Positions 8,654 through 54,086 of a stretch of DNA of 64,000 nt are shown here, one piece after another. The notes under the pieces are model-generated. The model was not told the DNA's origin, made no database searches, and was given only the letters and a program-made list of their open reading frames with translations. A program made the translations under genes and the position numbers. Source of the DNA: an uncultured Clostridia bacterium (GTDB lineage: Bacteria; Bacillota; Clostridia; Christensenellales; Aristaeellaceae); NCBI GenBank assembly GCA_946536315.1, contig CAMNEH010000001.1:592-64591 (forward strand), read 5' to 3'. Numbering within the stretch: position 1 is the stretch's first letter; every line of letters starts with the position of its first letter.

Positions 8654-8737
8654 ACAGGCAGAGGGGCGGCGGGATATCCGGCGCCGTCCCGGCGTGCGCG
8701 CGGGAAGCGCGCAAACACAGAAAGGACGCGATGTGCC

Positions 8738-10741: not shown

Positions 10742-10742
10742 T

Positions 10743-11717: not shown

Positions 11718-11741
11718 CATGAATAGGAGGAGGTATCACCC

Positions 11742-12614: not shown

Positions 12615-12627
12615 TCCGCAAACTACG

Positions 12628-12679
12628 GCTGCGGCAGGCGCGTTCAAACTATGCTGGACGGCCTGCCGCAGCTTTTATT
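12628..12679 (+). terminator. intrinsic terminator
   Basis: GCTGCGGCAGGC (12628-12639) pairs perfectly with GCCTGCCGCAGC (12661-12672), followed by TTTTATT. It overlaps the ORF-track start at 12651, which argues for a downstream start of the next gene. Confidence 0.65.
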
Positions 12680-12704
12680 GAATGGGAACGATGAGGAGCT
12701 TCGC

Positions 12705-38748: not shown

Positions 38749-39755
38749 TGGAAGACATCATTACGGTTTCAGTCATCATTCCGGTGCTGAACGAGGAAAA
38801 ATACATCGATCAGTGCATCGACGCCTTCCTGGGGCAGACGTACCCGCAGGAGCGCATGGAATGCCTGATTGTCGACGGTCATTCCGCGGACCGGACGGCG
38901 GACATGGTCAGGGAGCGCATCGCGCGCGGCGCGGGCAGTCTGAGACTGCTGACCAATGAGCGCCGGACGCAGGCCTGCGCCATGAACATCGGCATCCGTC
39001 ACGCGCGCGGGAAGTACATCGTCCGCTGGGACGCCCACGCGGATTACGCGCCGGACTATATCGCGGTGTGCGTCGAATTGCTGGAGACGGGCAAATACGA
39101 CAACGTCGGCGGCGTGGCGGACACCCGGGGCCGCACGCCGTTTGGGCGGACGGTGGCACGGATGATGTCGTCCCCGTTTGGGGTCGGCAATTCCACCTTC
39201 CGGACCGAGGTCACCAGCGCGGAGGTCGATACCGTGCCCTTCGGCGCGTTCAAAAAGACCCTGTTCGACCGGATCGGCGGCTTTGATGAGCGTCTGGACC
39301 GGAACGAGGACAACGAGATCAATTTCCGGATCCGGAAGAAGGGCGGCGTTGTCTATCTGTCCGACCGCATCCGGTTCACCTATTATTGCCGGGATACCCT
39401 GCGAGGTATACTGAACATGGCCTTCCAGAACGGCAAGTGGACGGTGCTCGCGTCCAGGCTTTGTCCGGGCGCCATGCGGGTCAGGCATTTTGTACCGTTT
39501 GCTTTCCTGCTTTCAGTCATCGCCGGTATCCTGCTTTCGCCGCTGGCCGACTGGATCCGCGGGCTGTTTCTGCTGGAGCTGCTGGCCTATCTGGCGCTGG
39601 ACCTCTTTTTTTCCGCGAGGGCGGCGTCCGGACCGAGGCAATTCGCCGTTTTGCTGTGCCTGTTTCCCGCCTTTCACCTGAGCTATGGCGCGGGGTCTCT
39701 GGCGGGACTGCTGCGCATGGGCGGTATCACCACCGCGCGGCAGGAGGTGAAATGA
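38748..39755 (+). CDS. glycosyltransferase family 2 with C-terminal TM helices
   Basis: VIIPVLNEEKYIDQCIDAFLGQTY, LIVDGHSADRT, NEDNE. Three to four C-terminal hydrophobic helices. Confidence 0.8.
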   Translation: MEDIITVSVIIPVLNEEKYIDQCIDAFLGQTYPQERMECLIVDGHSADRTADMVRERIARGAGSLRLLTNERRTQACAMNIGIRHARGKYIVRWDAHADYAPDYIAVCVELLETGKYDNVGGVADTRGRTPFGRTVARMMSSPFGVGNSTFRTEVTSAEVDTVPFGAFKKTLFDRIGGFDERLDRNEDNEINFRIRKKGGVVYLSDRIRFTYYCRDTLRGILNMAFQNGKWTVLASRLCPGAMRVRHFVPFAFLLSVIAGILLSPLADWIRGLFLLELLAYLALDLFFSARAASGPRQFAVLLCLFPAFHLSYGAGSLAGLLRMGGITTARQEVK

Positions 39756-41335
39756 TGATTTCTGGAGCCCTTCACCGGGCCATACGGCTGGCGGTGATGG
39801 CGTGCTTTGTGACGGCACTGGTAGTCGCTGCGTATCACAATGCGCAGCTGGTGATTGAACCCGCAGGCCAATACCTGTCTGGGAACGCCACATTCGATGA
39901 AACGACGAAGGCGATCGCGTCCGGCTACCTGTCGGACGGCCTGTGGGCCAAACGCAGCTTTGTCGAGCTGAACGGCCTGTTCTCGAGATGGACCGCGCGA
40001 AAAAAGGTGAACGGAGTCATCCGGCTGAATAACGGCATGCTGAGCAATACGGAGGACGCGAAAATGGCGCTGCTCGATCTGAGCGACGCAGTGGAAAGCA
40101 TGTCGGCTTTTTCCGAATACCTCGCGAGCCTGGGCACCCGGTTCATCTACGTCCTGCGGCCTGAGAAAATGGACGTCCGGCAGGAGCTCCTGCCCGCGGG
40201 GCTGCAGAACCATACAGATGAAAATGACACCGCGTTGCTCAGTCAGCTGTCGGAGCGCGGGGTTCGGACCATCGACCTTCGCCCGGAGACCATGTCCTCC
40301 GTCGAGGCGATCGACCGCAGTTTTTACCGGACAGATCACCATTGGACGCCGGACGGCGCGATGCTGGCCTACGGCGTCATCATGAATGCCCTGCATGAGC
40401 TGGACGAGACCATCCAGCCTGCCTATACAGATCCGGCCATGTGGCAGCGGCACAGCAAGGACCACTGGTTCCTGGGCAGTGCGGGCAAGCGCGTGGGCAC
40501 GCTGTACGCCGGAACGGACCCCCTGATCTGGTTCACGCCGGCGTTCGAGACAGAGATGTCCTGTGTCATACCGCGCCACCGGCAGATCTTCAAAGGCGAT
40601 TTCGTGCAGGTGAATATCCGGGATGTGTATATAGAACGCGCGGATTATTATCATGATAATCCGTACTGCGTCTATATCGGCGGACACTATCCGCTGGTCG
40701 TGCACAGAAACGCGCTCGCGAAAAATCATCAGCGTATCCTTTTGGTCAATGACAGCTTCATGCTTCCGCTGCAAGCCTTCCTGTCAACGGAATTCGCGGA
40801 GATGGACGTGATCGACCCACGCATGTACAAGGATTTCAGCATCGCGGAATACTGCGCGATGACGAGGCCGGATGTTGTGCTGATGATGACTTCGCCACAG
40901 CTCCTGGTGACGAACGACTATTCAGAATACGGGGTAGCGGAAGCGCGCGCGTCCCACGACGCCCAGAAGTGGACGAATCTGCTGGAAGATTATGAGGTGC
41001 GCCTCCCCGCCAAAGCGGACAATTACAACTTCGCGCAGATCCCGGTCACGCTGGAGCGCGGAAGAACTTACCGGTTCAATTTTGAAAGCGCGGAGATAAC
41101 AGACGGACAGACAGACGGTATCGGTGTGGTGCTGTTCCGCTGGGACGATAATGGCATCGTCCAGAATAACATCTACGATGTCGGATTTTGCGCGCAAAAC
41201 GGCGGTGAACCGTGGCATTTCAGAGTACCCAATGACCAGTACAGATATGCGCTGCTGGTGTATGCGGGCCTGCTGGGAAAGACAGCGGGCAACGGCATGA
41301 GGATGGACGGCATCTCCGTCCTGCAGATGGAATAA
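39752..41335 (+). CDS. DHHW-motif / AlgX-AlgJ-like SGNH O-acetyltransferase candidate (paralog 1, motifs intact)
   Basis: The ATG overlaps the upstream stop. N-terminal TM anchor. FYRTDHHWTPDGAMLAY and LLVNDSFM motifs are present. The C-terminal ~130 aa form an extra domain. Confidence 0.7.
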   Translation: MMISGALHRAIRLAVMACFVTALVVAAYHNAQLVIEPAGQYLSGNATFDETTKAIASGYLSDGLWAKRSFVELNGLFSRWTARKKVNGVIRLNNGMLSNTEDAKMALLDLSDAVESMSAFSEYLASLGTRFIYVLRPEKMDVRQELLPAGLQNHTDENDTALLSQLSERGVRTIDLRPETMSSVEAIDRSFYRTDHHWTPDGAMLAYGVIMNALHELDETIQPAYTDPAMWQRHSKDHWFLGSAGKRVGTLYAGTDPLIWFTPAFETEMSCVIPRHRQIFKGDFVQVNIRDVYIERADYYHDNPYCVYIGGHYPLVVHRNALAKNHQRILLVNDSFMLPLQAFLSTEFAEMDVIDPRMYKDFSIAEYCAMTRPDVVLMMTSPQLLVTNDYSEYGVAEARASHDAQKWTNLLEDYEVRLPAKADNYNFAQIPVTLERGRTYRFNFESAEITDGQTDGIGVVLFRWDDNGIVQNNIYDVGFCAQNGGEPWHFRVPNDQYRYALLVYAGLLGKTAGNGMRMDGISVLQME

Positions 41336-41347: not shown

Positions 41348-42937
41348 ATGAAAATGAAAAAACAACTGTTACACAAAATCATCCGCTGCATGGTCGTAGC
41401 GGGTACGGTGATTTGCGTGATGATCGCCACGGTCACCAACGCGCAGATCTTTTTGACGCCTGCGGGGCAGTTTCTGTCGGGCGATATTTCCTTCGATCAG
41501 ATGTCGGACAGGATCACGACGGGGTATGAGTCCGACGCGCTGTGGGAAAAAGAACGCTTTGCCGAGCTGAATGGCCTGTTTCTGCGCATGGCGGCGCGCC
41601 GCGTCGTGAACGGCGTCACACGGCTGAACAACGGAATGCTGACCTTTTCCTACGAAGCGCAGCGGATCAAGATGCCGGTGGACCGTGCCGCGCCGAAGAT
41701 CGCCCGGTTTTCCGATTATCTCAGCACGCAGGGGATTCCCTTTGTGTACGTGCTGCAGCCGGAGAAAATGGACGTCAACCATGCGCTGCTGCCCCTGGGA
41801 CTGCAGAACCACATGATTGAAAACGGGACCGACCTGCTGAGCCGCCTGTCCGAGGCCGGTGTTTTCACCGTGGACCTCCGTCAGGAGCTGGTCGGATCTG
41901 CTGAGGTTGTGGCCCGCCATTTTTACCGGACAGATCAAAGCTGGAACCCGGACGGCGCTTTCGCGGCTTACCGCGTCATCATGAACGCGCTGCAGGAGCT
42001 GGACGCGTCCGTACGGCCGGGCTTTACGGACGCCGCGCTATGGGAACGCCACTGTCAGGAGGACTGGTTCCTGGGCAATCAGGGCCAGCGCACAGGCGCG
42101 CTTTATGCGGGGCTTGATCCGATGATCTGGTATACCCCTTTGTTCGACACGGACATGCGCTGCATCATCCATGAGAATCAACAGGATTTCAGCGGGAATT
42201 ACGTACAGGCCAATCTGCGCGCCCGGTATCTCGCTCAGCGTGAATTCGGGGAAGACAGCCCCTGCTATGTGTATGTGGGCGGCGATTATTCGCATGTGCA
42301 GCATCAGAATGCGCAAGCGCCGAATCAGAAGCGGATCCTGCTGATCAAGAACACCCAAATGCTGCCGCTGCAGACCTTCCTTGCGACCGAATTCGCGGAG
42401 GTGGACGTCATCGATCCCAGGTATTACGGCGCTTCCGGTATTGCCAGATACTGCGCGATGACCCGCCCGGACTGCGTGATCATGATGGCCACTCCGGAAA
42501 ACTGCCTGACCAGCGATTATTCCGACTTTGGGGTGGACAGGGCGCAGGCGGAAAAGGCGGGCGAAAACTGGACCTCTGTGCTGGATGGATACGAGGTGAG
42601 CCTGAGCGCGGAGGATAACAATTATCATTTCGCGCAAATCCCCGTTTCACTGGCGGCAGGAAAAACGTACCGCTTCGCGTTTGACGGGCTTGAGCTGACA
42701 GCGGGTGATACCGCGGCTATCAACGCGGTGCTGTTCAGATGGAACGGCAACCGGATAATCCGGAACCATATTTACGATATCAGCTTCAGCGCCTCCGGCG
42801 GCGAACCGTGGTATTTTACGGTGCCGGAGGAGGATGAAGAGTATGCCCTGCTGGTCTATGCGGGCATCAACGGACAGACTGCCGGGAACGGCCTGCAGAT
42901 GACCGGCATCTCGGTCGCCAGAATGGAGACACCGTAA
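41348..42937 (+). CDS. DHHW-family paralog 2 with degenerate catalytic motifs
   Basis: Collinear with paralog 1 over the full length by eye. The motifs read FYRTDQSWNPDGAFAAY and LLIKNTQM instead. Confidence 0.7.
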   Translation: MKMKKQLLHKIIRCMVVAGTVICVMIATVTNAQIFLTPAGQFLSGDISFDQMSDRITTGYESDALWEKERFAELNGLFLRMAARRVVNGVTRLNNGMLTFSYEAQRIKMPVDRAAPKIARFSDYLSTQGIPFVYVLQPEKMDVNHALLPLGLQNHMIENGTDLLSRLSEAGVFTVDLRQELVGSAEVVARHFYRTDQSWNPDGAFAAYRVIMNALQELDASVRPGFTDAALWERHCQEDWFLGNQGQRTGALYAGLDPMIWYTPLFDTDMRCIIHENQQDFSGNYVQANLRARYLAQREFGEDSPCYVYVGGDYSHVQHQNAQAPNQKRILLIKNTQMLPLQTFLATEFAEVDVIDPRYYGASGIARYCAMTRPDCVIMMATPENCLTSDYSDFGVDRAQAEKAGENWTSVLDGYEVSLSAEDNNYHFAQIPVSLAAGKTYRFAFDGLELTAGDTAAINAVLFRWNGNRIIRNHIYDISFSASGGEPWYFTVPEEDEEYALLVYAGINGQTAGNGLQMTGISVARMETP

Positions 42938-42998: not shown

Positions 42999-44486
42999 AT
43001 GAAAAAAAGCAAGAAGCAAAAAGCTGCTCCTCCTGCTGCTCCGTCTCCGGTGACGGCGCTTCCGGCCGCTGCGCCGGACCTGCGGGCTGACCGCCCCGCT
43101 GGTCAGCTGATATCGTGGCGGAAGGTCGCGCTGTTCATCGCCATATGCTGGCTTCCCTTTTTTGTCTACACCATGCCGGGCAATATCGCCTGGGATACGG
43201 GCGCAGGGATCGGCCAGTTTATGAAGATCGGAGCTGAGAATCCGAACAACCCGTATTTCCAGAATTATCTGATGGGCGCGTTCTGCTACTTCGGGCGGTT
43301 GGCCGGCAATACCAATCTCATGGTGCTGCTGTACTGTCTGCTGCAGACTGTCGCAGAAATTCTGGTGCTCTCCCGCATCATCGCGCGCGTGGGGGAGCAC
43401 AGCCGCGTCGCGGGCTACATCCTGCTGGCGTTTTACTGCTTCGTGCCGACCGTGCCGATCTACGCGATGACGATGGGCAAGGATTCCAACCTCGCGGTCG
43501 CGGTGCTGTTGTACCTGGCCTGCGCGCTGCAGGCGATGCGCGATGACGCGTACTGGAAAGAGGAACGCCATGAAACGCTGTTTGCATCCAGCATCCTGCT
43601 GATGACGCTGTTCAGGAATCATGCGGGCTGGGTACCGGCCGTGGCGTTTGTCCTCTACACGATCTTTGCGGTCCGGCAAAAGCGGCTGGTGCTTCACTCC
43701 CTGGCAGTGCTGGGCGCGGTGGCCATGCTGTCCGTGGGGCTTCCTGCGCTGCTGGATATCCCGAAAGTGGAGATCAAGGAAAGCCTGACGGTGCCGATGC
43801 AGACGATGGCGTACTTCATCAAGACGCGGCCGGAAGACCTGACCGATGAGGAACGTGGGATCATCACGCAGGTCATCGACATCGACCGGATGATGCGGCA
43901 TTATGATCCGAACATCGTCGATTCCATGAAGAAGCGCATGGTCCTGGACGAAAAGACGACCGGGCCGTTTCTCCGCCTGTGGCTGCGCAAATGTTTCCAG
44001 CATCCCCTGACTATGCTGCAGGGCATGTATCAGAGCACGTATATCTATTTGATCCCGACGGAGCGAAGCGCCAACAAGGGACAGGCGACGGTGGGCTATG
44101 ACATCAGCGAGGAGGTGAAGGAAAAAATGAACATGTACAATGACAACCCGAACGTCGTCCGGATTAAAAACTATCTGAAGCGCTGGATCAACGCGCCCGT
44201 CCTGGGCCTGCTGGTGAGGATCGGGCTGTTTTCCTGGCTGCTTGCGCTGCTGGTGATTCTGATCTTCGTGTTCCGCCGGCCGCGGTACCTGTTATGCGCC
44301 GCGCCGCTTCTGACGATCTTCATTGGCTGTCTGCTTTCGCCCCTTAACGGCTACTACCGCTACGCCCTGTCCATGATCGTCGGCGTGCCCGTCGTGCTGG
44401 CTGACCTGCTCAGCACGGTGACGGCCAACCTGCGCTTCCCGCCGATCAGGCGGCGCGTCAGGAACACGAGCCCCGCCGGGAGGTGA
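42999..44486 (+). CDS. polytopic membrane protein, possible GT-C-like glycosyltransferase (function unassigned)
   Basis: 495 aa. Lys/Pro/Ala-rich N-terminus followed by 10 or more hydrophobic helices. Loop motifs include NIAWDTGAG and YAMTMGKDSN. Confidence 0.45.
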   Translation: MKKSKKQKAAPPAAPSPVTALPAAAPDLRADRPAGQLISWRKVALFIAICWLPFFVYTMPGNIAWDTGAGIGQFMKIGAENPNNPYFQNYLMGAFCYFGRLAGNTNLMVLLYCLLQTVAEILVLSRIIARVGEHSRVAGYILLAFYCFVPTVPIYAMTMGKDSNLAVAVLLYLACALQAMRDDAYWKEERHETLFASSILLMTLFRNHAGWVPAVAFVLYTIFAVRQKRLVLHSLAVLGAVAMLSVGLPALLDIPKVEIKESLTVPMQTMAYFIKTRPEDLTDEERGIITQVIDIDRMMRHYDPNIVDSMKKRMVLDEKTTGPFLRLWLRKCFQHPLTMLQGMYQSTYIYLIPTERSANKGQATVGYDISEEVKEKMNMYNDNPNVVRIKNYLKRWINAPVLGLLVRIGLFSWLLALLVILIFVFRRPRYLLCAAPLLTIFIGCLLSPLNGYYRYALSMIVGVPVVLADLLSTVTANLRFPPIRRRVRNTSPAGR

Positions 44487-45037
44487 ATGCGCTGCGTATC
44501 TGGAAGGATATCCTGGCACAGGGACAGTACCTGTTCCGGGCTGGATTGGTCACGGCACTGATTCTTCTGGCCTCCGTGCTTTATCCGGACGGGCGGAGCG
44601 GCGCGGGGCAGCGCCTCAGGCGCCTGTTGAAGCGGCCGTGGCGGATCGCGTTCGCGTTTTATTGCGTGTTCATTCTGACCAGCACGGTCCTGGGCCGTTC
44701 GTTTGTCAATCCGACCGAGCACGTGCTCACCCATTTCGGATTCACACATCAGGGCGCGTTCAACGACCAGCTGGTGGAAAACATCCTGTTCTTCATTCCA
44801 CTGACGTTTTTTTACCTGAACGCGTTCCCGGTCCGGCACCCGTTCAGAAACGCGCTGCAGCTGTCCGTGGGTATGACGCTGCTGGTGGAAATGTGCCAGC
44901 TGCTGGGCAGGCTGGGGGAATTCCAGCTGGCGGACATGGCGCAGAATATCGTTGGCGGGCTGCTCGGCTGGGCGCTGTGGCGCCTCACCCGGATCCTGTT
45001 TCCGTCAGGTCGTTCCTCACGCGAAAACGGTTTGTAA
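44483..45037 (+). CDS. VanZ-like family membrane protein
   Basis: The GTG overlaps the upstream stop (GTGA). ENILFFIPLTFF and EMCQLL...LADMAQNIVGGLLGW resemble VanZ-family helices. Confidence 0.65.
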   Translation: MNALRIWKDILAQGQYLFRAGLVTALILLASVLYPDGRSGAGQRLRRLLKRPWRIAFAFYCVFILTSTVLGRSFVNPTEHVLTHFGFTHQGAFNDQLVENILFFIPLTFFYLNAFPVRHPFRNALQLSVGMTLLVEMCQLLGRLGEFQLADMAQNIVGGLLGWALWRLTRILFPSGRSSRENGL

Positions 45038-45064: not shown

Positions 45065-45093
45065 TTGACAGACCGGAGGATTCTTAATATAAT
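45065..45093 (+). promoter_or_regulatory. consensus SigA promoter of the RiPP operon
   Basis: TTGACA (45065-45070), exactly 17 nt, TATAAT (45088-45093). GGAGGG RBS at 45107-45112 lies before the TTG start at 45123. Confidence 0.8.
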
Positions 45094-45122: not shown

Positions 45123-45599
45123 TTGCGCGATTACGCAACCGTGCGCACGATGCCTGCAGCGCAGTACTTTGCGCTGGTCAGGCAGTCGCTTCAGGATACG
45201 GGGCAGGCCTATGTCCGCGTGACGGGCGCCAGCATGCGCCCGCTGCTCAGGCACAGGCGGGACGGGGTCATCCTCGGACGGCCGGAAACGCTCCGCCGGG
45301 GCGATATCGTGCTGTTTGACCGCGGTGACGGCCGCTACGCGCTGCACCGCGTGATCCGTCTGCGGCCGACCGGGTTTGATATGGCCGGCGATCATCAGCG
45401 CAATGTCGAAACCGACCTGCCGTATGCGCAGGTCGTCGGTGTCGTGACCGCCGTTGATCGGGGCGGACGCCGTATCTCCCGTTCAAACTTTTTTTTTCAA
45501 TTATTGGCGTTTTTACTGCCACGTCTCGCGGAGCTGCGTATCAATGTACGGAAGGCGCTGACGGCAGGCCGGAGCCTTCTGAAGCGCGGACGGGCATGA
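45123..45599 (+). CDS. S26-family peptidase of the Ser-His (SipW/Sec11-like) type
   Basis: 158 aa. GASMRP carries the nucleophile Ser. GDIVLFDRGDGRYALHRVIRL matches the GDI..F...HR(V/I) box of ER/archaeal-type signal peptidases. No clear N-terminal TM anchor. Confidence 0.65.
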   Translation: MRDYATVRTMPAAQYFALVRQSLQDTGQAYVRVTGASMRPLLRHRRDGVILGRPETLRRGDIVLFDRGDGRYALHRVIRLRPTGFDMAGDHQRNVETDLPYAQVVGVVTAVDRGGRRISRSNFFFQLLAFLLPRLAELRINVRKALTAGRSLLKRGRA

Positions 45600-45606
45600 A
45601 AGGATC

Positions 45607-45879
45607 GTGCGCATGCGAATTCGACCGGGATATGTTCTGCGTCAGGTCATGGACATGTATGTTGTCGTGGGCGTGGGGAGCGAAACATACCGCCCAAACC
45701 AGATCATGAGTCTCAATGAGACCGGCGCGGCGCTCTGGCGTAAGCTGGAGCAGGGGGCTGACACGCAGACGCTCATCCGCAGCCTGACAGAGGAATTTGA
45801 AGTGGACCCTGTCACAGCCGGGAACGATCTGAACGCCTTCCTCACCCAGCTGCGCGAGCACGCGCTGATCGACGAATGA
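45607..45879 (+). CDS. PqqD-like RiPP recognition element protein
   Basis: 90 aa. LNETGAALWRKLEQGADTQTLIRSLTEEFEVDPVTAGNDLNAFLTQL is typical PqqD-family sequence. The stop overlaps the rSAM start (ATGA). Confidence 0.8.
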   Translation: MRMRIRPGYVLRQVMDMYVVVGVGSETYRPNQIMSLNETGAALWRKLEQGADTQTLIRSLTEEFEVDPVTAGNDLNAFLTQLREHALIDE

Positions 45880-47024
45880 GGGAAAAGGTCTGGCAGCCGG
45901 ACCGGATTGCCGACCAGCTTCAGATGCGGGCGATCCGCCTGCGCCGTCCGCTGAGCTGTACGCTGGAGCTGACCTGCCACTGCAACTTTCACTGCGTGAT
46001 GTGCTACATCCGCATGAATGAAGCGCAGGCGGCGGCCCATGGCCGGATGAGGACGCCGGAGGAGTGGCTGGACATGGCCCGGCAGCTCAGGGAAGCGGGC
46101 GTACTGTACCTGCACCTGACCGGCGGGGAGTGCACCCTGTACCCGGGGTTTGAGCGCCTGTACGCGAGGCTTTCGGAGATGGGCTTCAGACTGAGCGTGA
46201 TGAGCAACGCGGGAGCCTATACGGACAGCGTGCGCCGGGTGTTCACCCAGTATCCGCCGCTCAGCGTGGCGGTCACGCTGTATGGCGGCTGCGCGGCGAC
46301 CTACGGCCGGGTGACCGGCGACGCCGGAGGCTTTGACAGGGTCGTGGACAATATCCGCTTCCTGCAGTCCGCCGGGATCCCGGTGACCGTCAACTTTACC
46401 ATGATCCGGCAGAACGCGCAGGATTATCCAAAGGTGGCTGAACTGTGCCGTACGCTGGGCATCGCGTTCACGCTGAACACGGACATCACGCCCCATCGGT
46501 ATGACGCCTCGTATTCCGATGCGATGCGCTGCTCTCTGACCCCGGCGGAACGGGCGTGTGTCGCATGCCACTCCCCTTCTGAGGTGGACATTGCCCTGAA
46601 CGCGGCCAAGACGCTCGAACAGGAGCTGTCGCATTTCACGCCTCCGCAAGGGCCCGCGGGCGTCCTGCCCGAGCAGGAGGCCTGCATCGCCGGCTCCGCA
46701 GGCTGCGCGATCGCCTGGAATGGCGACATGCAGACCTGCGTCTCCCTGAACGCATGGCAGAGCGTGAAGCCGTTTGAAATCGGCTTTGAGGCCGCCTGGG
46801 CGCAGCTCAAAGCCGCGCAGGACAGGACGTTTGCGCGCCCGAGCGTATGCGCTCAGTGCGAAATGCGGACAGACTGCGATCACAACTGCCCCGGCAGGCG
46901 GTTCGAAGGCACGGGGAATATCCACACCCCCGACCCGCGGGTATGTCAGTACACGTACCTGCTGAGGCTGTACCGCGCCAGGCGCGGCACGGTGTCCACG
47001 CCAGGCACGCCCGGCTGCGTCTGA
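45876..47024 (+). CDS. radical SAM enzyme with C-terminal SPASM domain (peptide maturase)
   Basis: CNFHCVMC (Cx3Cx2C) lies near the N-terminus and is followed by a GGE motif (LTGGECTL). The C-terminal SPASM pattern is CIAGSAGCAIAWNGDMQTC ... CAQCEMRTDCDHNC ... VC. Confidence 0.9.
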   Translation: MREKVWQPDRIADQLQMRAIRLRRPLSCTLELTCHCNFHCVMCYIRMNEAQAAAHGRMRTPEEWLDMARQLREAGVLYLHLTGGECTLYPGFERLYARLSEMGFRLSVMSNAGAYTDSVRRVFTQYPPLSVAVTLYGGCAATYGRVTGDAGGFDRVVDNIRFLQSAGIPVTVNFTMIRQNAQDYPKVAELCRTLGIAFTLNTDITPHRYDASYSDAMRCSLTPAERACVACHSPSEVDIALNAAKTLEQELSHFTPPQGPAGVLPEQEACIAGSAGCAIAWNGDMQTCVSLNAWQSVKPFEIGFEAAWAQLKAAQDRTFARPSVCAQCEMRTDCDHNCPGRRFEGTGNIHTPDPRVCQYTYLLRLYRARRGTVSTPGTPGCV

Positions 47025-47079
47025 GCGTCCCGCCGCTGCCCTGATCCGGATGAAGACCGTACCACAGGAGGAATCATCC

Positions 47080-47262
47080 ATGAGAAAAAAGTATGTCGCG
47101 CCGAAACTGTTTGTCGATGTATACGCTGCGGACACCATGATCGCTTCGGACGACCCCACCCCGGTGTTTGAAGCCAAGGAAGGCAATCCGAACAATCAGA
47201 ACTGCTATGGCTATAAGGACATTCCCGGGGCGTTCGTAGACGGCAACATCTGCATCATGTGA
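47080..47262 (+). CDS. candidate RiPP precursor peptide A (60 aa, no GG site)
   Basis: AGGAGG (47066-47071) lies 8 nt before the ATG. Sequence: MRKKYVAPKLFVDVYAADTMIASDDPTPVFEAKEGNPNNQNCYGYKDIPGAFVDGNICIM. It has two Cys (C42, C58) and sits directly after the rSAM gene. Confidence 0.55.
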   Translation: MRKKYVAPKLFVDVYAADTMIASDDPTPVFEAKEGNPNNQNCYGYKDIPGAFVDGNICIM

Positions 47263-47266: not shown

Positions 47267-48103
47267 ATGACCTGTACGTTTGGCCGCTATGCGCTCGACA
47301 TCGGAGGTTTTCCGGAAGCGCTTCACTCCATCTCCGCGTCATGGAAGGACTACGTGGGTCAGACGGGAGTATCGCCGCCTGACGCTCGGCTCACGCTGCT
47401 GACCGCGCCGACAGCCCCGGATGAACGGACGGACGGATGGTATGCGTCAGCGGGAGAAGCGGAAGAGCTGGAAGTGACCTGCGTACGGGCCGGCCAGCGC
47501 CTGTTCACGCTGCGTTATGGCGGCGAGAGGGGCAAAGTGACGCTGATCGCCGACGAAGCGCGGCCAGGGAGCGTTCGCCTGGGCCTGCGGTACGGCATGC
47601 TGCTGGCCCTGCGAAAGACCTGTCTGGGCCTGCACGGTGTCACCCTGCTGTGCGGGAATGAGGTGGTGATCCTCTCCGCGCCCAGTGGGACCGGCAAAAC
47701 GACGCTGGCTTCGCTCCTGGAGCGGTATGAGGACGCCATTGTGATCAACGGCGATTTCGCGCTGCTTACGCCGGCGGAGGATGGTCTCTGGTTTGAACCC
47801 ACGCCCTTCTGCGGTACGTCACACAGGTGTCTGAACGTTCGTACGCGGGTGCACCGGATCGTTTTCCTGGGCCAGTCGCCTGTGAACGTCTGGCGGACCC
47901 TGGACGCGCGGGAAGCCGCCCTCTGTCTGCTGAGCAACGCATTCGTCCCCGAGTGGGACTTGTCCGCACAGCAGACGCTGCAGGAGCACGCGCTGCGCTG
48001 CATATCCCTTGCGCGCATGGACCGGTTTGACTTCGCGCCGACCCGTGAGGCGGCCGGGATCGTGATTCATCAGCAACTGCATGAAGAGCAATCTTCTCAG
48101 TAA
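47267..48103 (+). CDS. HprK C-terminal-domain-like P-loop protein (putative peptide kinase)
   Basis: 278 aa. LHGVTLLCGNEVVILSAPSGTGKTTLASLL resembles the HPr kinase/phosphorylase catalytic P-loop region. Confidence 0.65.
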   Translation: MTCTFGRYALDIGGFPEALHSISASWKDYVGQTGVSPPDARLTLLTAPTAPDERTDGWYASAGEAEELEVTCVRAGQRLFTLRYGGERGKVTLIADEARPGSVRLGLRYGMLLALRKTCLGLHGVTLLCGNEVVILSAPSGTGKTTLASLLERYEDAIVINGDFALLTPAEDGLWFEPTPFCGTSHRCLNVRTRVHRIVFLGQSPVNVWRTLDAREAALCLLSNAFVPEWDLSAQQTLQEHALRCISLARMDRFDFAPTREAAGIVIHQQLHEEQSSQ

Positions 48104-48123: not shown

Positions 48124-48360
48124 ATGGAGTTCAAACAACCGACCAGCCAGGCTGAAATGGATGCCCTGCGCAAGAGCCTGCGCCAGAAGCTCGACGATGC
48201 TGACCTCGAAAACGTGGTCGGCGGCAATGACGACGTCAAGGGCAAGGGGAATCCCACCCCCTGGACCTGCCTGTGGTGCGGCCAGACGTTCATGCTGAAA
48301 AAGCTGCAGGACGCCGCCAAGCACTGCGCGCATGACTGCCCGAAGAATCCGTACAAGTAA
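48124..48360 (+). CDS. double-glycine-leader precursor peptide B (78 aa; 44-aa Cys4 core)
   Basis: GGAGG lies 7 nt upstream. The leader ends LDDADLENVVGG, with hydrophobics at -4, -7 and -12. Core: NDDVKGKGNPTPWTCLWCGQTFMLKKLQDAAKHCAHDCPKNPYK. Confidence 0.75.
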   Translation: MEFKQPTSQAEMDALRKSLRQKLDDADLENVVGGNDDVKGKGNPTPWTCLWCGQTFMLKKLQDAAKHCAHDCPKNPYK

Positions 48361-48375: not shown

Positions 48376-48399
48376 GCCTGGCAGTTTGTTCTGCCAGGC
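48376..48399 (+). terminator. hairpin (attenuator-like) after precursor B
   Basis: GCCTGGCAG-TTTGTT-CTGCCAGGC is a perfect 9-bp stem followed by a weak T-tract (tgcctttc). Confidence 0.45.
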
Positions 48400-48429
48400 T
48401 GCCTTTCATGTGAAGTTGCTCTCAGACCG

Positions 48430-50139
48430 ATGTCAATGATAAACTATCTGGCGAAAATCAAGTCCATCCTCAAAGGCCGCACGCTGCCGGATATCGTCCG
48501 CTGGACCAGGCCGGTCCATGCGATGCTGCTGTGGCTGAGCGTTCTCAACGTGGTGAGCTCGCTGCTCTCGCTGGGCGTGACGCTGGTGACACGGGAGCTG
48601 ATCGACGGCGCAGTCAGCGCGAACGCGAATGCGCTCACACGCTACGGTGTGATGCTGGCAGCGCTGATCATCGTCATGCGCGTGCTCGATGTATTGTATT
48701 CCGGCCTGCGCAGCCGCGCCTCTGTCCGGCTGCAGCGGGAAATGCAGCGCATGATCACACAGGCGGTGCTTTCCAGGGAATATGCTTCGCTGAAATCCTA
48801 CCACAGCGGCGACCTGATCAACCGAATCTTTTCGGATGCGGAGGTGGTCAAGAACGGCGTCATCAACACGCTGGCGGGCATCATCAATACCCTGGTCAGC
48901 TTTATCGGCGCCGCGATCATCCTGATTTCCATGGACTGGCGCTTTGTGCCCGTGCTGATCCTGGGCGGACTGATCGGCGTCGTGATCACGCTGCTGTTCC
49001 GAAATCCCATGAAGCGCCGTCACACGCGCATGCAGGAGGCGGAGAGCGCGCTGCGCGCAGGCACGCAGGAAACGCTGGAAAGCCTGCGCGTCGTCAAGGC
49101 CAGCCTCTCAGAAGCGCGCGTAATGCGTCAGCTGGAGGACAGCCGTGAGCGCCTGAGCCTGGAACAGCTGCGCAACGCCCGCCTGAGCATCGCCATGAAC
49201 AACGGAATGGGTGTCCTGTTTGACGTGTCCTGGCTGGTGTGCAATCTATGGGGCTGCGTCAAGATTTACCGCGGTGAGTTCACCTACGGCGGCCTGGCCG
49301 CCATGATCCAGCTGATCGGCCGGATTCAGGCGCCGATCGCGTCAGCAGTCCAGATGGCCAGCCAGATCTACGGTGTGCTGGCGTCGGCAGAGCGTCTGCA
49401 GGAGGTCATTGGCCTGCCTGAGGAGCCGAACACGGGCAAAATCAGTTCGTTTGACCGGATCGCGCTCGAGAATGTTTCGTTCCAGTATGAGGATGGTACG
49501 GATGAGGTTCTGCTCAACGTCACCGCAAGCATCCGGCGCGGAGATTTTATCGCCCTGACCGGGCGGTCCGGCGGTGGAAAAACCAGCCTGTTCCACCTGC
49601 TGCTGGGCCTTTACCGCCCGACGCACGGCGCGGTGGTCTTTGAATCCGGCGCCGAGCGGATACTCGCCGGTCGGGGCACCCGGGCACTGTTCGCCTATGT
49701 GCCGCAGGGCAACACGCTGTTTTCCGGTACGCTTCGCGAAAACCTGACGCGTTTTACCGACAGCGCGTCGGATACGGAGGTCATTGCCGCGGCGAAGGCT
49801 GCCTGCATCGACGACCTCGTTGCGGAAATAGGGCTGGACGCCGTTCTGGGAGAACATGGTGTCGGTCTGTCAGAGGGCCAGGCGCAGCGGGTGGCGGTGG
49901 CGCGCGCCTTGCTCAGCCGGGCGCCGATCCTGCTGCTGGACGAAGCGACCTCCGCGCTGGATGAGGCGACGGAAGCGAACATGCTGACCAATATCGGCCG
50001 CATGCGCGATAAAACGGTCCTGATTGTGACGCATCGCCGCGCGGCACTTGACATTTGCGACGTTCGGTGGCATATTGAGGAGGGACGGATGTCCGTCACG
50101 CGCCTTGCGCGGCATTCTGACGATGGGGGAAGCATGTGA
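48430..50139 (+). CDS. ABC exporter, fused permease/ATPase (no peptidase domain)
   Basis: 569 aa. Six-TM domain, Walker A GRSGGGKTS, signature LSEGQAQRV, Walker B ILLLDEATS. Confidence 0.85.
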   Translation: MSMINYLAKIKSILKGRTLPDIVRWTRPVHAMLLWLSVLNVVSSLLSLGVTLVTRELIDGAVSANANALTRYGVMLAALIIVMRVLDVLYSGLRSRASVRLQREMQRMITQAVLSREYASLKSYHSGDLINRIFSDAEVVKNGVINTLAGIINTLVSFIGAAIILISMDWRFVPVLILGGLIGVVITLLFRNPMKRRHTRMQEAESALRAGTQETLESLRVVKASLSEARVMRQLEDSRERLSLEQLRNARLSIAMNNGMGVLFDVSWLVCNLWGCVKIYRGEFTYGGLAAMIQLIGRIQAPIASAVQMASQIYGVLASAERLQEVIGLPEEPNTGKISSFDRIALENVSFQYEDGTDEVLLNVTASIRRGDFIALTGRSGGGKTSLFHLLLGLYRPTHGAVVFESGAERILAGRGTRALFAYVPQGNTLFSGTLRENLTRFTDSASDTEVIAAAKAACIDDLVAEIGLDAVLGEHGVGLSEGQAQRVAVARALLSRAPILLLDEATSALDEATEANMLTNIGRMRDKTVLIVTHRRAALDICDVRWHIEEGRMSVTRLARHSDDGGSM

Positions 50140-50846
50140 GGACGTTTATCATCGGCGATATTCACGGCTGTGATAAGGCGCTGAACCGGCTGCTGATCCG
50201 GCTCAGACCGCATGAGGACCGTGATCAGCTGATTCTGCTGGGCGATTTGTTTGACCGCGGCCCGGACGCCTGGGAAGTGTTCCGGACCGTCAGACAGCTG
50301 GCGGACGCGTACGGCGAGCGCTTTGTCCTGATCCTGGGCAATCATGAGGATTTCCTGATGAGGGAGAAGCTCTCGCTGATGGAGCGCATGACGTGGAATC
50401 GCGTCGGCCGCCTGACGACGGTGCGCTCGTTCAAAGCGCACGGCGATGATCCGGCGTCTGCGATTCCCTGGCTGAAAGCGCACGCGCAGCTGACCTACCG
50501 CGACGAGCGCGTACAGTGCGCTCACGCGGCCGTCCGCGTCGAGCCTGTCGAGGCGAATGATCGTCAGACGCTGGTGCACGACCATCATACGCTCGTCGAA
50601 AACAGCTACGCGGGGCGGTTGACCGTCACCGGACATATGGCGCTGGAGGCGCCGACCTGGTTCGCCGGTGATCGCGAGACGGCGGAACAGATTCCGTACG
50701 GCGAATGGCGGCCCCTGCCGCAGCGGGGCGTGCTGTGCATAGATACCGGTTGCGGCAAGGGCGGGCGATTGACCGGGATGCAGCTGGAAGAGGACCCGGA
50801 CAGCGGCGCGCTGCGTTACCGGCTGGAGCGGGCGAAAGAAGAATAA
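50136..50846 (+). CDS. PPP-family metallophosphoesterase (Ser/Thr phosphatase / ApaH-like)
   Basis: The GTG overlaps the ABC stop (GTGA). Motifs: GDIHGC, GDLFDRGP, GNHE. Confidence 0.85.
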   Translation: MRTFIIGDIHGCDKALNRLLIRLRPHEDRDQLILLGDLFDRGPDAWEVFRTVRQLADAYGERFVLILGNHEDFLMREKLSLMERMTWNRVGRLTTVRSFKAHGDDPASAIPWLKAHAQLTYRDERVQCAHAAVRVEPVEANDRQTLVHDHHTLVENSYAGRLTVTGHMALEAPTWFAGDRETAEQIPYGEWRPLPQRGVLCIDTGCGKGGRLTGMQLEEDPDSGALRYRLERAKEE

Positions 50847-50864: not shown

Positions 50865-51026
50865 CCTGCCATCCTGCCCCGGGGCGCGTATATAGTATTG
50901 GAATGAGTCCATCGGACATTCCACCGAGCGGAACAAAACGCCGCAGGACGGCTGTTCCGTGCCGATGGCGCTCTGCTCCGGAACAATGTTTGCAAAGTCC
51001 AACATCTTTTAAAGGAGGATTTGACC

Positions 51027-51251
51027 ATGGCACGCGTACAGCTCAACGACAATCAGCTGGAACAGGTTTCCGGCGGCGCTTTCAACTTCTACAAGAAGGA
51101 TGACCAGAACCAGTGCTACGTGGACGGTATGGGCACCTTCAACTGCAGCGCGGATGCGTCCAACTGGGTGCTCCAGCGCATGGCGACCACCGGCGCGCCG
51201 GTGTCCACCGTGATCGCGGAAGCGGTGGAAAAGGGACTGTTCTGGAAGTAA
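51027..51251 (+). CDS. double-glycine-leader bacteriocin precursor C (74 aa; 57-aa core)
   Basis: AGGAGG (51013-51018) lies 8 nt before the ATG. Leader: MARVQLNDNQLEQVSGG. Core: AFNFYKKDDQNQCYVDGMGTFNCSADASNWVLQRMATTGAPVSTVIAEAVEKGLFWK (C13-x9-C23). Confidence 0.8.
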   Translation: MARVQLNDNQLEQVSGGAFNFYKKDDQNQCYVDGMGTFNCSADASNWVLQRMATTGAPVSTVIAEAVEKGLFWK

Positions 51252-51330: not shown

Positions 51331-51382
51331 CCTCTCAGCCTTTCGGGGTTTCCCGCGAAGGCTGGGAGGTTGTACTGTTTTC
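51331..51382 (+). terminator. long imperfect hairpin plus T-rich tail after precursor C
   Basis: CCTCTCAGCCTTTCGGGG...CCCGCGAAGGCTGGGAGG pairs over about 17 bp with bulges, followed by TTGTACTGTTTTC. Confidence 0.6.
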
Positions 51383-51405
51383 GGCCAATCAAAAAGGAGC
51401 TTTCT

Positions 51406-51894
51406 ATGCAGGATCAGCAGAAACCCAAACTGTTTCGAGAAAAAAGCCTCGAGGCGATTGAGTCGCCTGAGGCGCTGAATGATTACCTTCGCGTCACTTC
51501 CCCCGGGGTCTGGCTGGTGATGGCCGCTGTGATCACGCTGCTGGTCGGGCTGCTTCTGTGGAGCATCCTGGGACGCATCGACACCACGATGCGCGTGGCG
51601 GTCGAGGCAGACAATGAGCGCACGGTTTGCTATGTGCCATACGACGCGCTGCAAAAGATGAAGGATGAAGGCAAGCTGACCATTGACGGGAAGGAGTATT
51701 CCCTGCAGCTCGGCGGTGAAGCCAGCGTGGTCATCGTCTCGGAGGAAACAAATCCCTATCTTCGCGTGGCGGGCGGCCTGCAGCTGGGGGATGTGACCGT
51801 GCAGGTGCCGGTCGCGGCGTCCCTGGCCGAGGGCGTATACTCAGGTACGATCGTGACGGACCGCCTTCAGCCGATCACGCTGCTGATACAGTGA
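51406..51894 (+). CDS. short HlyD-like secretion adaptor (NHLM-system type N-terminus)
   Basis: RBS AAGGAG is present. LFREKSLEAIESPEALNDYLRVTSPGVWLVMAAVITLLVGLLLW matches the N-terminus plus TM of bacteriocin-system HlyD adaptors, but the protein is only 162 aa. Confidence 0.6.
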   Translation: MQDQQKPKLFREKSLEAIESPEALNDYLRVTSPGVWLVMAAVITLLVGLLLWSILGRIDTTMRVAVEADNERTVCYVPYDALQKMKDEGKLTIDGKEYSLQLGGEASVVIVSEETNPYLRVAGGLQLGDVTVQVPVAASLAEGVYSGTIVTDRLQPITLLIQ

Positions 51895-54086
51895 GGGAGG
51901 GGAAACGCGTGGCTCGAAAACCAAATATTCCCCGTCCGGTTGAAAAAGGGTTTGTCCGGGTGCCGGTGGTCATGCAGCTGGAGACGCTGGAGTGCGGCGC
52001 CGCTTCGCTGACAATGGTCATGCATTACTACCGCAAGTGGATCCCCCTGGAACAGGCGCGCGTGGACTGCGGCGTGTCCATGAACGGCGCGAACGCGAAA
52101 AACATCCTCGCCGCCGCGCGAAGCTACGGCATGAAGGCAGACGCCTGGGGCCTGGAGGCGGAAGACCTGCCGGACCAGGGGCCGTTTCCGTGCATCATCC
52201 ACTGGGGATTCAATCATTTTGTGGTCCTCTGCGGCTTTCAGGGCAAGAAGGCGGTCATCAACGATCCGGCGCGGGGGAACGTGGTGGTCGACTGGGAAGA
52301 GTTTGACAGGGAGTTCACCGGCGTCTGCATCACGCTTGAGCCGGGGCCGGATTTCGTGCCCTCCGGAAAACCGAAGACCGTCATGGATTACGCGCGCGAG
52401 CGCCTGAAAGGGTCCGGCGCGGCGGTGACGTTCGTCGTTCTGACGACGACCATTTCGTCACTGATCGGCATCATTCAGCCGGCCTTTGCGCGGACCTTCC
52501 TGGACCGGCTGCTCACCGGACGGAATCCGGAGTGGCTCCGCCCGTTCATGCTGCTCTTTTCACTGCTGATTCTGGTCAGCATTGTCACGTCCTGGATTTC
52601 CGCGGTCTATTCCCTGCGTATTCAGGGCAAAATGGCATCCTATGGCAGCGCGTCGTACCTGTGGAAGGTGCTCAGGCTGCCGATGCAATTTTTCAGCCAG
52701 CGCATGTCGGCGGACATTGCGGACCGGCAGGCGACCAACGCGTCCATCGCCGGCACGATGGTCGAAACCTTCGCGCCGCTGGCGCTTCAGGCGCTGATGA
52801 TGGTGTTTTACCTGGTCGTCATGGTCAGCTACAGCCCGCTTCTGTCGGCGGTCGGCATCGGCGCGATCGCGCTGAACCTGCTGGTCTCTGCCATGGTGAC
52901 CAGGCGCCGCGTCAATATCACGCGCGTCCAGCAGCGTGACGCCGCCAAGCTCTCGTCAACCACCATGTCCGGCATCAGCATGATCGAGACCATCAAGTCC
53001 AGCGGCGCGGAAAACGGCTTTTTTGAGCGCTGGGCGGGATATCAGGCGAGCGTCAACACGCAGTCGGTCCGGTTCACCCGGCTGAATCTGTTTTTAGGTT
53101 CCCTGCCGCAGGCCATCACGACCATCGCCAATCTGGCCGTGCTCGGTCTGGGTGTGCTGCTCGTCCTGCGCGGCGAGTTCACTGTCGGTATGGTGATGGC
53201 CTTCCAGACCTTCCTTTCTTCGTTCATGTCCCCGGCGACGTCGCTGATCACCGCGGGCCAGTCGATGCAGGAAATGATCACGCAGATGGAGCGTGTGGAC
53301 GACGTGATGAGCTATCAGGAGGATCCCACGTTCGCCCCGCGCCCCAAGACCGGCGAATACCAGAAGCTGTCCGGCGCGGTCGAGCTGAAGAACGTGACGT
53401 TCGGCTATTCCCGGCTGGATAAGCCGCTCATCACTGACTTTTCCATGACGCTCAAGCCGGGACAGAAGGTTGCCTTTGTCGGCAGGACGGGCTGCGGCAA
53501 GTCCACCCTGGCCAAGCTGATCTCCGGATTGTACCAGCCCTGGAGCGGTACCGTCACATTTGACGGCGTCCCCCTGCAGGAAATAGACCGGAACGTGTTT
53601 ACAGGCTCCGTTTCCGTCATCGATCAGGACATTACGCTGTTCGAGGACACGATTTCCGAAAACATCCGGATGTGGGACGGTTCCATTGAAGACTTCGAAG
53701 TAACGCTGGCGGCGCGCGACGCGGGCATCTATGACGATATCGTGACCCGCGACGGCGGGTTTACGCACCGGCTGCTGGACGGCGGACGCGACCTGTCCGG
53801 CGGGCAGCGGCAGCGCCTGGAAATCGCGCGCGCCCTTGCGCAGGATCCGACCATCTGCATCATGGACGAGGCGACCTCGGCGCTCGACGCCAGGACGGAG
53901 CATGAGGTCATCCGCTCCATCAACGACCGCGGCATTACCTGTGTGATCATCGCGCACCGCCTGTCCACGATCCGCGACTGCGACGAGATCATCGTGCTGG
54001 ACAAGGGCAAAATCGTCGAACGCGGGACGCATGAGGAACTGTACGCCAAGGGCGGGCTGTATGCCAGCCTGGTGAGCAACGAGTAA
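51891..54086 (+). CDS. bacteriocin ABC exporter with N-terminal C39 peptidase domain
   Basis: The GTG overlaps the upstream stop. QLETLECGAASLTMVMHYY carries the C39 catalytic Cys region. Also has a six-TM domain, Walker A GRTGCGKST, signature LSGGQRQRL and ICIMDEATS. Confidence 0.9.
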   Translation: MREGKRVARKPNIPRPVEKGFVRVPVVMQLETLECGAASLTMVMHYYRKWIPLEQARVDCGVSMNGANAKNILAAARSYGMKADAWGLEAEDLPDQGPFPCIIHWGFNHFVVLCGFQGKKAVINDPARGNVVVDWEEFDREFTGVCITLEPGPDFVPSGKPKTVMDYARERLKGSGAAVTFVVLTTTISSLIGIIQPAFARTFLDRLLTGRNPEWLRPFMLLFSLLILVSIVTSWISAVYSLRIQGKMASYGSASYLWKVLRLPMQFFSQRMSADIADRQATNASIAGTMVETFAPLALQALMMVFYLVVMVSYSPLLSAVGIGAIALNLLVSAMVTRRRVNITRVQQRDAAKLSSTTMSGISMIETIKSSGAENGFFERWAGYQASVNTQSVRFTRLNLFLGSLPQAITTIANLAVLGLGVLLVLRGEFTVGMVMAFQTFLSSFMSPATSLITAGQSMQEMITQMERVDDVMSYQEDPTFAPRPKTGEYQKLSGAVELKNVTFGYSRLDKPLITDFSMTLKPGQKVAFVGRTGCGKSTLAKLISGLYQPWSGTVTFDGVPLQEIDRNVFTGSVSVIDQDITLFEDTISENIRMWDGSIEDFEVTLAARDAGIYDDIVTRDGGFTHRLLDGGRDLSGGQRQRLEIARALAQDPTICIMDEATSALDARTEHEVIRSINDRGITCVIIAHRLSTIRDCDEIIVLDKGKIVERGTHEELYAKGGLYASLVSNE

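Follow-up and report, generated by a model that had tools for sequence, protein, structure and literature searches.

An LppS-like putative leader peptidase encoded with PqqD and radical SAM/SPASM proteins in an operon of rumen Clostridia

Gene layout of the locus

We have examined a peptidase gene and the operon around it in a 64,000-nucleotide stretch of DNA, hereafter the window, from an uncultured Clostridia bacterium (GenBank assembly GCA_946536315.1, contig CAMNEH010000001.1, positions 592 to 64,591 of the forward strand). The contig comes from a metagenome assembly whose nearest relatives are metagenome-assembled genomes (MAGs) from rumen and omasum. The original prediction for this DNA, made from the sequence alone, was that the gene encodes a Ser-His peptidase of the SipW/Sec11 type that removes the leader of a peptide made on the ribosome and modified post-translationally (RiPP). 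Gene calling done independently on the source contig returned identical genes. The relevant features are as follows, in window coordinates:

37624 to 38748, + strand: NTP_transf_5 nucleotidyltransferase (LppN-like), a possible accessory gene 6.4 kb upstream (Pfam E 3.5e-25)
44483 to 45037, + strand: VanZ-like membrane protein directly 5' of the cassette (accessory), which also co-occurs with clusters for linear polyphosphorylated peptides (LPPs)
45065 to 45093, + strand: sigma-70-type promoter-like site, TTGACA-17-TATAAT, 5' of the peptidase gene, matching the consensus at 12/12 positions
45123 to 45599, + strand: putative LppS-type, SipW/Sec11-like (S26B-like) peptidase, 158 amino acids (aa), from homology, conservation and AlphaFold2 (AF2) fold
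45607 to 45879, + strand: discrete PqqD-family RiPP recognition element (RRE), 90 aa (Pfam PqqD E 2.6e-17)
45876 to 47024, + strand: radical SAM/SPASM maturase, 382 aa (Pfam Radical_SAM E 1.8e-20, weak SPASM)
47080 to 47262, + strand: precursor peptide A, 60 aa (site resembling a ribosome-binding site, orthologue starts, leader motif)
47267 to 48103, + strand: HPr-kinase-fold P-loop protein, 278 aa, a putative LppK-like/ScmC-like peptide kinase (AF2 and Foldseek)
48124 to 48360, + strand: peptide B, 78 aa, a peptide with a double-glycine leader whose gene stands sixth in the conserved cassette
48380 to 48403, + strand: terminator-like hairpin 3' of peptide B, from a consensus scan only, in which the count of such hairpins does not exceed that in shuffled sequence
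48430 to 50139, + strand: MsbA-like ATP-binding cassette (ABC) exporter without a C39 domain (Pfam ABC_membrane and ABC_tran)
50136 to 50846, + strand: calcineurin-like metallophosphoesterase (Pfam Metallophos E 2.4e-17)

In the list of open reading frames of the window, the peptidase frame has a TTG start, which is preceded by GGAGG at a distance of about 11 nt. Together with the sigma-70 consensus this makes the peptidase gene plausibly the first of the operon, as had been proposed. The PqqD gene begins 7 nt after it and overlaps the radical SAM gene by 4 nt; the small frame of peptide A ends at 47262, 3' of the radical SAM gene. Further downstream, the metallophosphoesterase gene overlaps the stop of the exporter gene.

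The order peptidase, PqqD, radical SAM, peptide A, HprK-like protein, peptide B is kept in 7/7 loci with a homologue among GTDB species-representative genomes and also in locus L010, that is, in 8/8 related loci (L and P numbers are our labels for loci and proteins). All seven GTDB loci belong to Clostridia, Clostridiales or Christensenellales MAGs from rumen or omasum. In L010 the peptidase and PqqD are fused into one 254-aa protein (P0026, L010 189-953). The ABC exporter and metallophosphoesterase adjoin the cassette in four of the seven GTDB loci. NTP_transf_5 was rejected as an obligatory member: of the related loci, just L008 and L010 have it near the cassette, and of the GTDB loci just L008 has it within 10 kb.

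The peptidase family: catalytic residues, fold and topology

The point of reference for this protein is LppS, which acts in the biosynthesis of LPPs, whose clusters lie in capsule loci (Popov et al., Nat Commun, 20 May 2026; PMC13381572). Deletion of lppS abolishes leader removal; cleavage by LppS needs the RRE protein LppB and works in a cell-free, membrane-free translation system, and the S29A, H68A and D93A mutants are inactive (PMC13381572). The same study reports that LppS is poorly soluble, that LppK polyphosphorylates Ser3 of the core, and that the leader motif is YxxPxVLxHQxIxFET/xxS, where the slash marks the cut; its authors regard signal peptidase I (SpI)-like peptidases as previously undescribed in RiPP pathways (PMC13381572). 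We took the LppS sequence (WP_029196374.1, Paenibacillus alginolyticus) from Supplementary Data 1 of that paper.

The 158-aa protein contains the two motifs on which the original prediction was built, GASMRP and GDIVLFDRGDGRYALHRVIRL, and its putative triad is Ser37/His75/Glu96, with Asp90 of the GD box in addition. Ser37 (in GASMRP), His75 (in ALHRV), Asp90, Asp61 and Arg76 are invariant in 120/120 close homologues, and so are Gly35, Met38, Pro40, Asp47, Arg67, Leu74, Gly89 and Gly106; position 96 is Glu in 115 of these sequences and Asp in 5. Residue conservation of this degree is far beyond chance. The alignment of the 120 homologues contains no conserved Lys anywhere. The tight family comprises at least 137 clusters at 90% identity, and the few members with a named source come from Clostridia/Clostridiales MAGs.

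An alignment was built from the window peptidase family, LppS, other RRE-linked homologues from the LPP paper, human SEC11A and the C-terminal domain of LexA. The SEC11A and LexA sequences used fit the published catalytic numbering (SEC11A S56/H96/D122). Ser37 shares its column with LppS Ser29, SEC11A Ser56 and LexA Ser119; His75 with LppS His68, SEC11A His96 and LexA Lys156; and Glu96 with LppS D93 and SEC11A D122. The predicted use of His in place of Lys is borne out by the second of these columns. Profile comparison of the family with LppS by hhalign gave a probability of 96.8% and an E value of 2.6e-10 across 120 columns, the two terminal helices among them, and pairwise BLASTP of the window protein gave 21% identity (E 1e-8). 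The two proteins have in common a length of about 150 aa, an N-terminal helix without an N-terminal anchor, a C-terminal hydrophobic helix, and the motifs GxSMxP, GD(I/V)xLF, xHR and GDxxxxx(D/E). They differ in the third catalytic residue, which is Glu in the window protein and Asp in LppS.

The AF2 model of the peptidase has a predicted local distance difference test score (pLDDT) of 89.3. Its top Foldseek match in the PDB is human SEC11C (7p2q_A, E 5.4e-4), and further matches are S. pyogenes SipA, LexA, UmuD' and SpsB. PDB sequence searches, run with the peptidase alone and with the family profile, gave no relevant match, so the S26 assignment rests on AF2, Foldseek and the alignments. On this basis the protein appears to belong to the SF-clan peptidases, and within them to the Ser-His (S26B-like) type, its third residue being acidic.

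Membrane topology was assessed by Kyte-Doolittle hydropathy in 19-residue windows, for which a transmembrane segment is expected at about 1.6 and above. The N-terminal maximum is at most 0.64 in 26/26 family members scored, and none of the 26 has an N-terminal membrane helix or signal anchor by this measure, in agreement with the absence of one noted earlier for the window protein. Opposite the transmembrane anchor of SEC11A the family has a 15-residue alignment gap, and an amphipathic helix at residues 12-26 takes the place of a signal anchor. The C-terminal helix (residues 123-157) is conserved, cationic and moderately hydrophobic, and AF2 predicts it as one long helix. Its hydropathy is about 1.0-1.4 across the family (1.18 in the window protein, 1.32 in LppS and up to 1.94 in P0117) and stays below the transmembrane threshold in 25/26 members; the segment contains Pro and Arg and is followed by the strongly cationic tail RKALTAGRSLLKRGRA. 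We take it for a probable interfacial or packing helix, not one that passes through the membrane.

Searched by profile, a set of 1.84 billion representatives yielded 2,821 relatives of the peptidase at E<=1e-10, only 14 of them at E<=1e-30. Most have 145-170 aa and the same architecture from end to end, including GxSMxP, LHR and GDxQxxxE. Fusions occur with PqqD in both orders (P0480, P0026), with the N-terminus of an ABC exporter (P0433) and, again in both orders, with NTP_transf_5 (P0457, P0462, P0488, P0491), and they argue for a cytoplasmic, RRE-coupled role. The fusion to an exporter mimics the architecture of peptidase-containing C39-ABC (PCAT) exporters, with a serine S26-like peptidase instead of a Cys protease. 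One member of the wider family, P0365, has Gly for the nucleophile Ser (TSTGMEP) and Arg for the catalytic His (GLRRV) and may be an inactive pseudo-peptidase. Five distant relatives were sampled for their genomic context:

L011: Metallophos, peptide, HprK-like, peptidase, PqqD
L016: PqqD, ScmC, peptidase
L017: PqqD, radical SAM, peptide, peptidase
L018: NTP_transf_5, peptidase, ABC exporter, within a polysaccharide locus
L019: Metallophos, PqqD, radical SAM, peptide, ScmC, peptidase

The radical SAM proteins of L017 and L019 are full-length homologues of that in the window (31-32% identity, E 1e-45 to 1e-48), which indicates that the association of radical SAM, peptidase and RRE is older than the tight rumen family.

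Precursor peptides and partner proteins

Peptide A had been given a start at 47050. That in-frame ATG is probably wrong, and the most likely start is the ATG at 47080, since an AGGAGG lies 8 nt upstream of it and the orthologous peptides all begin MKKYEAP. The resulting 60-aa peptide, MRKKYVAPKL..., has the leader MRKK-Y5-VA-P8-KLFVDVYAADTM, a conserved junction DTM-IAS that contains Ser23, and a core with NQNC42 and C58. No double glycine is present in its translation, in agreement with what had been proposed; instead it carries a YxxPxL motif of the RRE-binding type (Y5VAP8KL10), which is conserved in nine orthologous precursors. The orthologues share MKKYEAPxLxVDx(F/Y)Ax(D)(T/S)(M/V)IAS, followed by a variable, often Gly-rich linker and a core of NGNxxNNQNC plus one to three further Cys. 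In L007, a Christensenellales MAG, two peptide-A paralogues with different cores lie in tandem (1909-2130 and 2249-2461), which suggests core diversification behind a fixed leader.

When the orthologues were aligned by MAFFT with three LPP precursors, no gap appeared in the stretch that begins with the Tyr and Pro of YxxP and ends at the Ser phosphorylated by LppK. Tyr occurs in 11/12 sequences, and the Pro and phosphorylated-Ser columns are invariant. In this register the LppA site FET/AQS corresponds to DTM/IAS of peptide A. The HQ..FET part of the LPP motif is absent from peptide A, and only Y, P and S are shared in register. Precursors of more distant relatives keep the spacing from Tyr to junction (L017 ...MEP-IAS, L019 ...QES-IAD, L011 ...EGG-IMC), with Ile at register position 17 in all three. 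This fixed distance fits an RRE-based ruler that would present the scissile bond to the peptidase.

Peptide B has a double-glycine leader (...LDxVVGG/NDD...) and orthologues in L002-L008 and L010. Its C-terminus is conserved and rich in Cys and His, W(T/V)CPxCG...(D/E)xxKH...KCPxNPYK, and resembles a CxxC...H...C metal-binding or disulfide motif.

The PqqD protein matches the lasso-peptide B1 proteins TfuB1 and TbiB1 in a PDB sequence search. It is 23% identical to LppB (E 9e-5), and lasso B1 proteins are about equally distant. Lasso B1/B2 systems follow the logic proposed for the window, a discrete RRE that brings the leader to its dedicated peptidase in the cytoplasm; the window differs in having a serine S26-like enzyme in place of a Cys protease and no macrolactam synthetase. 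No lasso-peptide genes were found among the genes examined around the cassette (window 37.6-54 kb).

The radical SAM protein has a CxxxCxxC motif near residue 35 and a C-terminal CX2CX5CX3C, both read from the translation. Its Radical_SAM domain starts at residue 31 and no N-terminal RRE is fused to it, so that it presumably depends on the discrete PqqD protein. The same dependence is known for PqqE, which requires PqqD. The close homologues form a tight family of about 383 aa whose most specific name is 'radical SAM protein'. No curated NCBIfam family covers the window protein: ScmE, SkfB and PqqE are its best matches, far below cut-off, and the similarity to SkfB, AlbA and StsB is only sub-threshold. 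Formation of Cys-to-carbon thioethers, as in sactipeptides or ranthipeptides, is plausible in view of the conserved Cys in the core of peptide A.

The AF2 model of the 278-aa protein has a pLDDT of 90.9. Its top Foldseek matches are HPr kinase/phosphorylases (HprK/P; 1knx, 3tqf, 1kkl and 1ko7, E ~1e-5), followed by the phosphoenolpyruvate carboxykinase fold, and GxSGxGKT and NGD motifs are invariant. Neither Pfam nor NCBIfam assigns the protein beyond the P-loop, and the NCBIfam model ScmC does not match it. The HprK fold emerged from the structure search; a PDB sequence search gave P-loop matches only. For some relatives Pfam PF27840 ScmC is recorded, with the match in L010 marked 'weak'. L004, a sheep-omasum MAG, has another HprK-like gene, a divergent one, about 5 kb upstream of its cassette (4703-5062; 27% identity over the P-loop half).

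The metallophosphoesterase is ApaH/PrpE-like at a sub-threshold level. Metallophos genes also accompany LPP clusters (Supplementary Data 2 of PMC13381572) and the distant relatives L011 and L019. The enzyme is a possible phosphate-trimming enzyme, and its pairing with the kinase-like protein hints at addition and trimming of phosphate.

The combination of an HprK-like or ScmC protein, a PqqD-family protein and a PqqE-like radical SAM/SPASM protein recalls SynChlorMet (ScmC/ScmD/ScmE/ScmF), GeoRSP and HPr-rel-A. Every match of the window to the SynChlorMet and GeoRSP families is far below the NCBIfam cut-off (ScmE 73.8 versus 400 bits, ScmD 14.5 versus 100, GeoRSP_rSAM 50.6 versus 400), and those cassettes are themselves uncharacterised bioinformatic families of NCBIfam/TIGRFAM. 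These cassettes are not known to be defined with an S26-like peptidase, and a literature search for SynChlorMet/Scm found nothing relevant.

Interpretation, alternatives and surroundings

We propose that the 158-aa protein, a distant homologue of LppS with a Sec11/SipW-type fold, is probably a leader peptidase that faces the cytoplasm and depends on an RRE. The proposal starts from the observed homology, residue conservation, fold, missing signal anchor, gene linkage and domain fusions. Catalysis and RRE dependence have been demonstrated in the literature only for LppS and are extended here by analogy. Judged by sequence, the window protein has the LppS-type features of homology, catalytic columns, RRE and YxxPxL leader. 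Co-occurring with LPP clusters are SpI, RRE, HprK, NTP transferase, MsbA, VanZ, phosphatase/Metallophos and glycosyltransferases (PMC13381572), and this set is present in its entirety in the window, including the LPP core of SpI, RRE, HprK kinase, NTP transferase and MsbA exporter. The likeness extends to arrangement: LPP clusters, too, have a discrete RRE next to the peptidase, a YxxPx(L/V) leader, an HprK-like kinase, an MsbA-like exporter, NTP_transf_5, VanZ and Metallophos genes, and a polysaccharide locus around them. Differences from LPP clusters are the host (rumen Clostridia, Christensenellales-like MAGs, rather than Bacilli), the radical SAM/SPASM gene between the RRE and precursor genes, cores with conserved Cys and without FET/AQSWN, and the second conserved peptide with a double-glycine leader.

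We infer the substrate, cleavage site, order of steps and radical SAM chemistry as follows. The discrete PqqD protein would bind the Y5-x-x-P8-x-L10 motif of peptide A and pass the peptide to three enzymes, one after another. Of these, the radical SAM/SPASM protein would most likely cross-link the Cys-containing core (NQNC...C), the HPr-kinase-fold protein might phosphorylate a core Ser, possibly the invariant Ser23, and the peptidase would dock via its N-terminal helix on the RRE-leader sheet and cut within the DTM-IAS junction, 15-19 residues past the Tyr. The product would exit through the MsbA-like ABC exporter, and the metallophosphoesterase and NTP_transf_5 protein could serve as optional tailoring enzymes.

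Several points weigh against this proposal. The curated S24/S26 models all score the peptidase below cut-off, Pfam Peptidase_S24 with 22.2 versus 23.3 bits and the NCBIfam archaeal-type SPase I model (TIGR02228, sigpep_I_arch) with 24.2 versus 51.85 bits; the originally predicted SipW/Sec11-type match thus stands for residues and fold and fails for these models. Identity to LppS is 21%, and the BLASTP E value of 1e-8 compares with an edge cut-off of 1e-23 for cluster 1 of the LPP sequence similarity network, so the protein would fall outside that cluster and outside the narrower definition of an LPP cluster. A membrane anchor could be formed by the conserved hydrophobic helix at the C-terminus. 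Nor is the scissile bond certain: in the LppA register the residue at -1 is Met, which is atypical for S26 enzymes, as is Pro, and the bond between DT and M or the bond after IAS would be alternatives. Register position 19 is Asp in L019, which has the kinase, and Ser in L017, which has none; Ser at this position does not track the kinase, so phosphorylation of Ser23 is hypothesized at most.

The alternative that survives best, itself unlikely, is that the enzyme is an active cluster peptidase with another job, namely processing of peptide B or C, degradation of the spent leader, or immunity (peptide C is a third double-glycine peptide, described below). In the cassette, the conservation of peptide B is no less strict than that of peptide A, and the site in peptide A is uncertain and has the atypical -1 residue in the LppA register. 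Both B and C, however, have double-glycine leaders of the classical kind, with a gene for a C39-ABC exporter close by, whereas the YxxPxL RRE motif, required for cleavage of the LppS type, occurs in peptide A only. In the distant relatives a single YxxP peptide accompanies the peptidase and RRE, and nothing resembling the gene for peptide B was noted there.

Slightly less probable is a leader peptidase of peptide A that works outside the cell or in the membrane, tail-anchored by its C-terminal helix and cutting after export. Its case lies in that helix, conserved, unbroken and with the hydropathy given above, and in the poor solubility of LppS (PMC13381572). Against it, the segment is below the transmembrane threshold in all but one of the members scored and has Pro and Arg inside, and the cationic tail should stay cytoplasmic by the positive-inside rule. 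The RRE that LppS requires is cytoplasmic, and the fusions of the peptidase to PqqD and to the N-terminus of an ABC exporter place the domain in the cytoplasm. A C-terminal hydrophobic segment, which we counted in favour of tail anchoring, is also found in SipW.

It is very improbable that the protein is a normal signal peptidase I of the SipW/archaeal type, serving secretion by taking Sec signal peptides off exported proteins such as those of the polysaccharide locus. Such enzymes (MEROPS S26B) share the fold and the Ser-His-acid motifs, SEC11C is the best structural match, sigpep_I_arch matches weakly, and some homologues are labelled 'signal peptidase I' at their source. The window protein is nevertheless not a bona fide S26B signal peptidase: it is without the N-terminal signal anchor, which none of the 26 members has, its score is less than half the TIGR02228 cut-off, it has Glu for Asp, and it stands in a cytoplasmic RiPP context rather than the Sec pathway, its gene being strictly linked, and sometimes fused, to cytoplasmic machinery (PqqD, radical SAM, kinase). 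LppS, moreover, cleaves its leader peptide in a membrane-free translation system (PMC13381572). The missing anchor, the score and the RiPP linkage largely refute the secretory reading.

Least credible is a self-cleaving regulator or mutagenesis factor of the S24 LexA/UmuD/cI type with a Ser-Lys dyad, which Peptidase_S24 as sole Pfam match, LexA and UmuD' among the Foldseek matches and the NCBI label 'S24/S26 family peptidase' of relatives would favour, and which the alignment refutes: the Lys column holds an invariant His, no Lys is conserved, only about 36 residues without a DNA-binding domain precede the Ser, the Pfam score is below gathering, the context is a RiPP operon, and the sequence therefore appears to lie outside S24.

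The reading as a leader peptidase of peptide A agrees with the original prediction, whose interpretation is supported, all of its checks that could be run having come out in its favour. The role it proposed has a precedent in LppS (PMC13381572), and for the same reason its remark that such an enzyme would be unusual no longer holds: that a RiPP leader peptidase can be an anchor-less enzyme of the Ser-His, signal-peptidase-like kind has been in print since May 2026, for a distant homologue. The variant seen here appears undescribed, namely a Clostridia operon, found mostly in rumen MAGs, in which the SpI-like/RRE/HprK module is combined with a radical SAM/SPASM protein and a Cys-containing precursor, and in which the third catalytic residue is Glu. 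Those parts of the text and supplementary data of PMC13381572 that were available make no mention of radical SAM. A literature search on S24/S26 peptidases with PqqD, radical SAM or RiPPs found only the LPP paper relevant and no such combination.

More tentatively, and with somewhat more doubt than belief on our part, the cassette may represent an undescribed RiPP class in which three unrelated enzymes share one discrete RRE, namely a cross-linking radical SAM/SPASM protein, a peptide kinase with the HprK fold and, in the cytoplasm, a signal-peptidase-like leader peptidase of the Ser-His-Glu type. If so, its product would be a peptide with cross-links and possibly phosphate groups, linked to polysaccharide loci of the cell envelope, and a large RiPP space well beyond LPPs would be marked out by the 2,821 cluster representatives found at E<=1e-10. 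LppS, the only characterised S26-type RiPP peptidase, comes from Bacilli and acts on linear phosphorylated peptides; here an LppS-like module appears to have been recruited together with radical SAM/SPASM in a tightly conserved operon of rumen Clostridia. The wider family is large (thousands of clusters at 50% identity) and repeatedly fused to RRE, ABC-exporter and nucleotidyltransferase domains, which makes it a practical genome-mining handle for unexplored RiPP clusters. The cassette is a test case for a single RRE that coordinates several enzymes, and for this peptidase the routine labels 'S24/S26 family peptidase', 'signal peptidase I' and 'hypothetical' can be corrected.

Upstream of the operon, a polysaccharide locus encodes glycosyltransferases, two ALGX proteins, NTP_transf_5, DUF6020 and VanZ. 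The ALGX-domain proteins are tandem paralogues (39386-41335 and 41348-42937), followed by the DUF6020 membrane protein (42999-44486) and VanZ (44483-45037). The RiPP operon thus lies inside an exopolysaccharide locus, a setting also reported for LPP clusters.

On the other side of the cassette, peptide C (51021-51251), the third peptide with a double-glycine leader, weakly matches the class IIb bacteriocins lactobin/cerein 7B. A HlyD/NHLM-like fragment of 174 aa (51370-51894) and a C39-ABC exporter (51891-54086) follow. This trio is intact in L008, and the HlyD-like fragment and/or the C39-ABC exporter also flank L002, L003 and L005; it may be a separate bacteriocin export unit beside the cassette. 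Across the window, GC content falls near 16 kb, from about 0.64-0.68 (1-16000) to about 0.57-0.62 (16000-64000).

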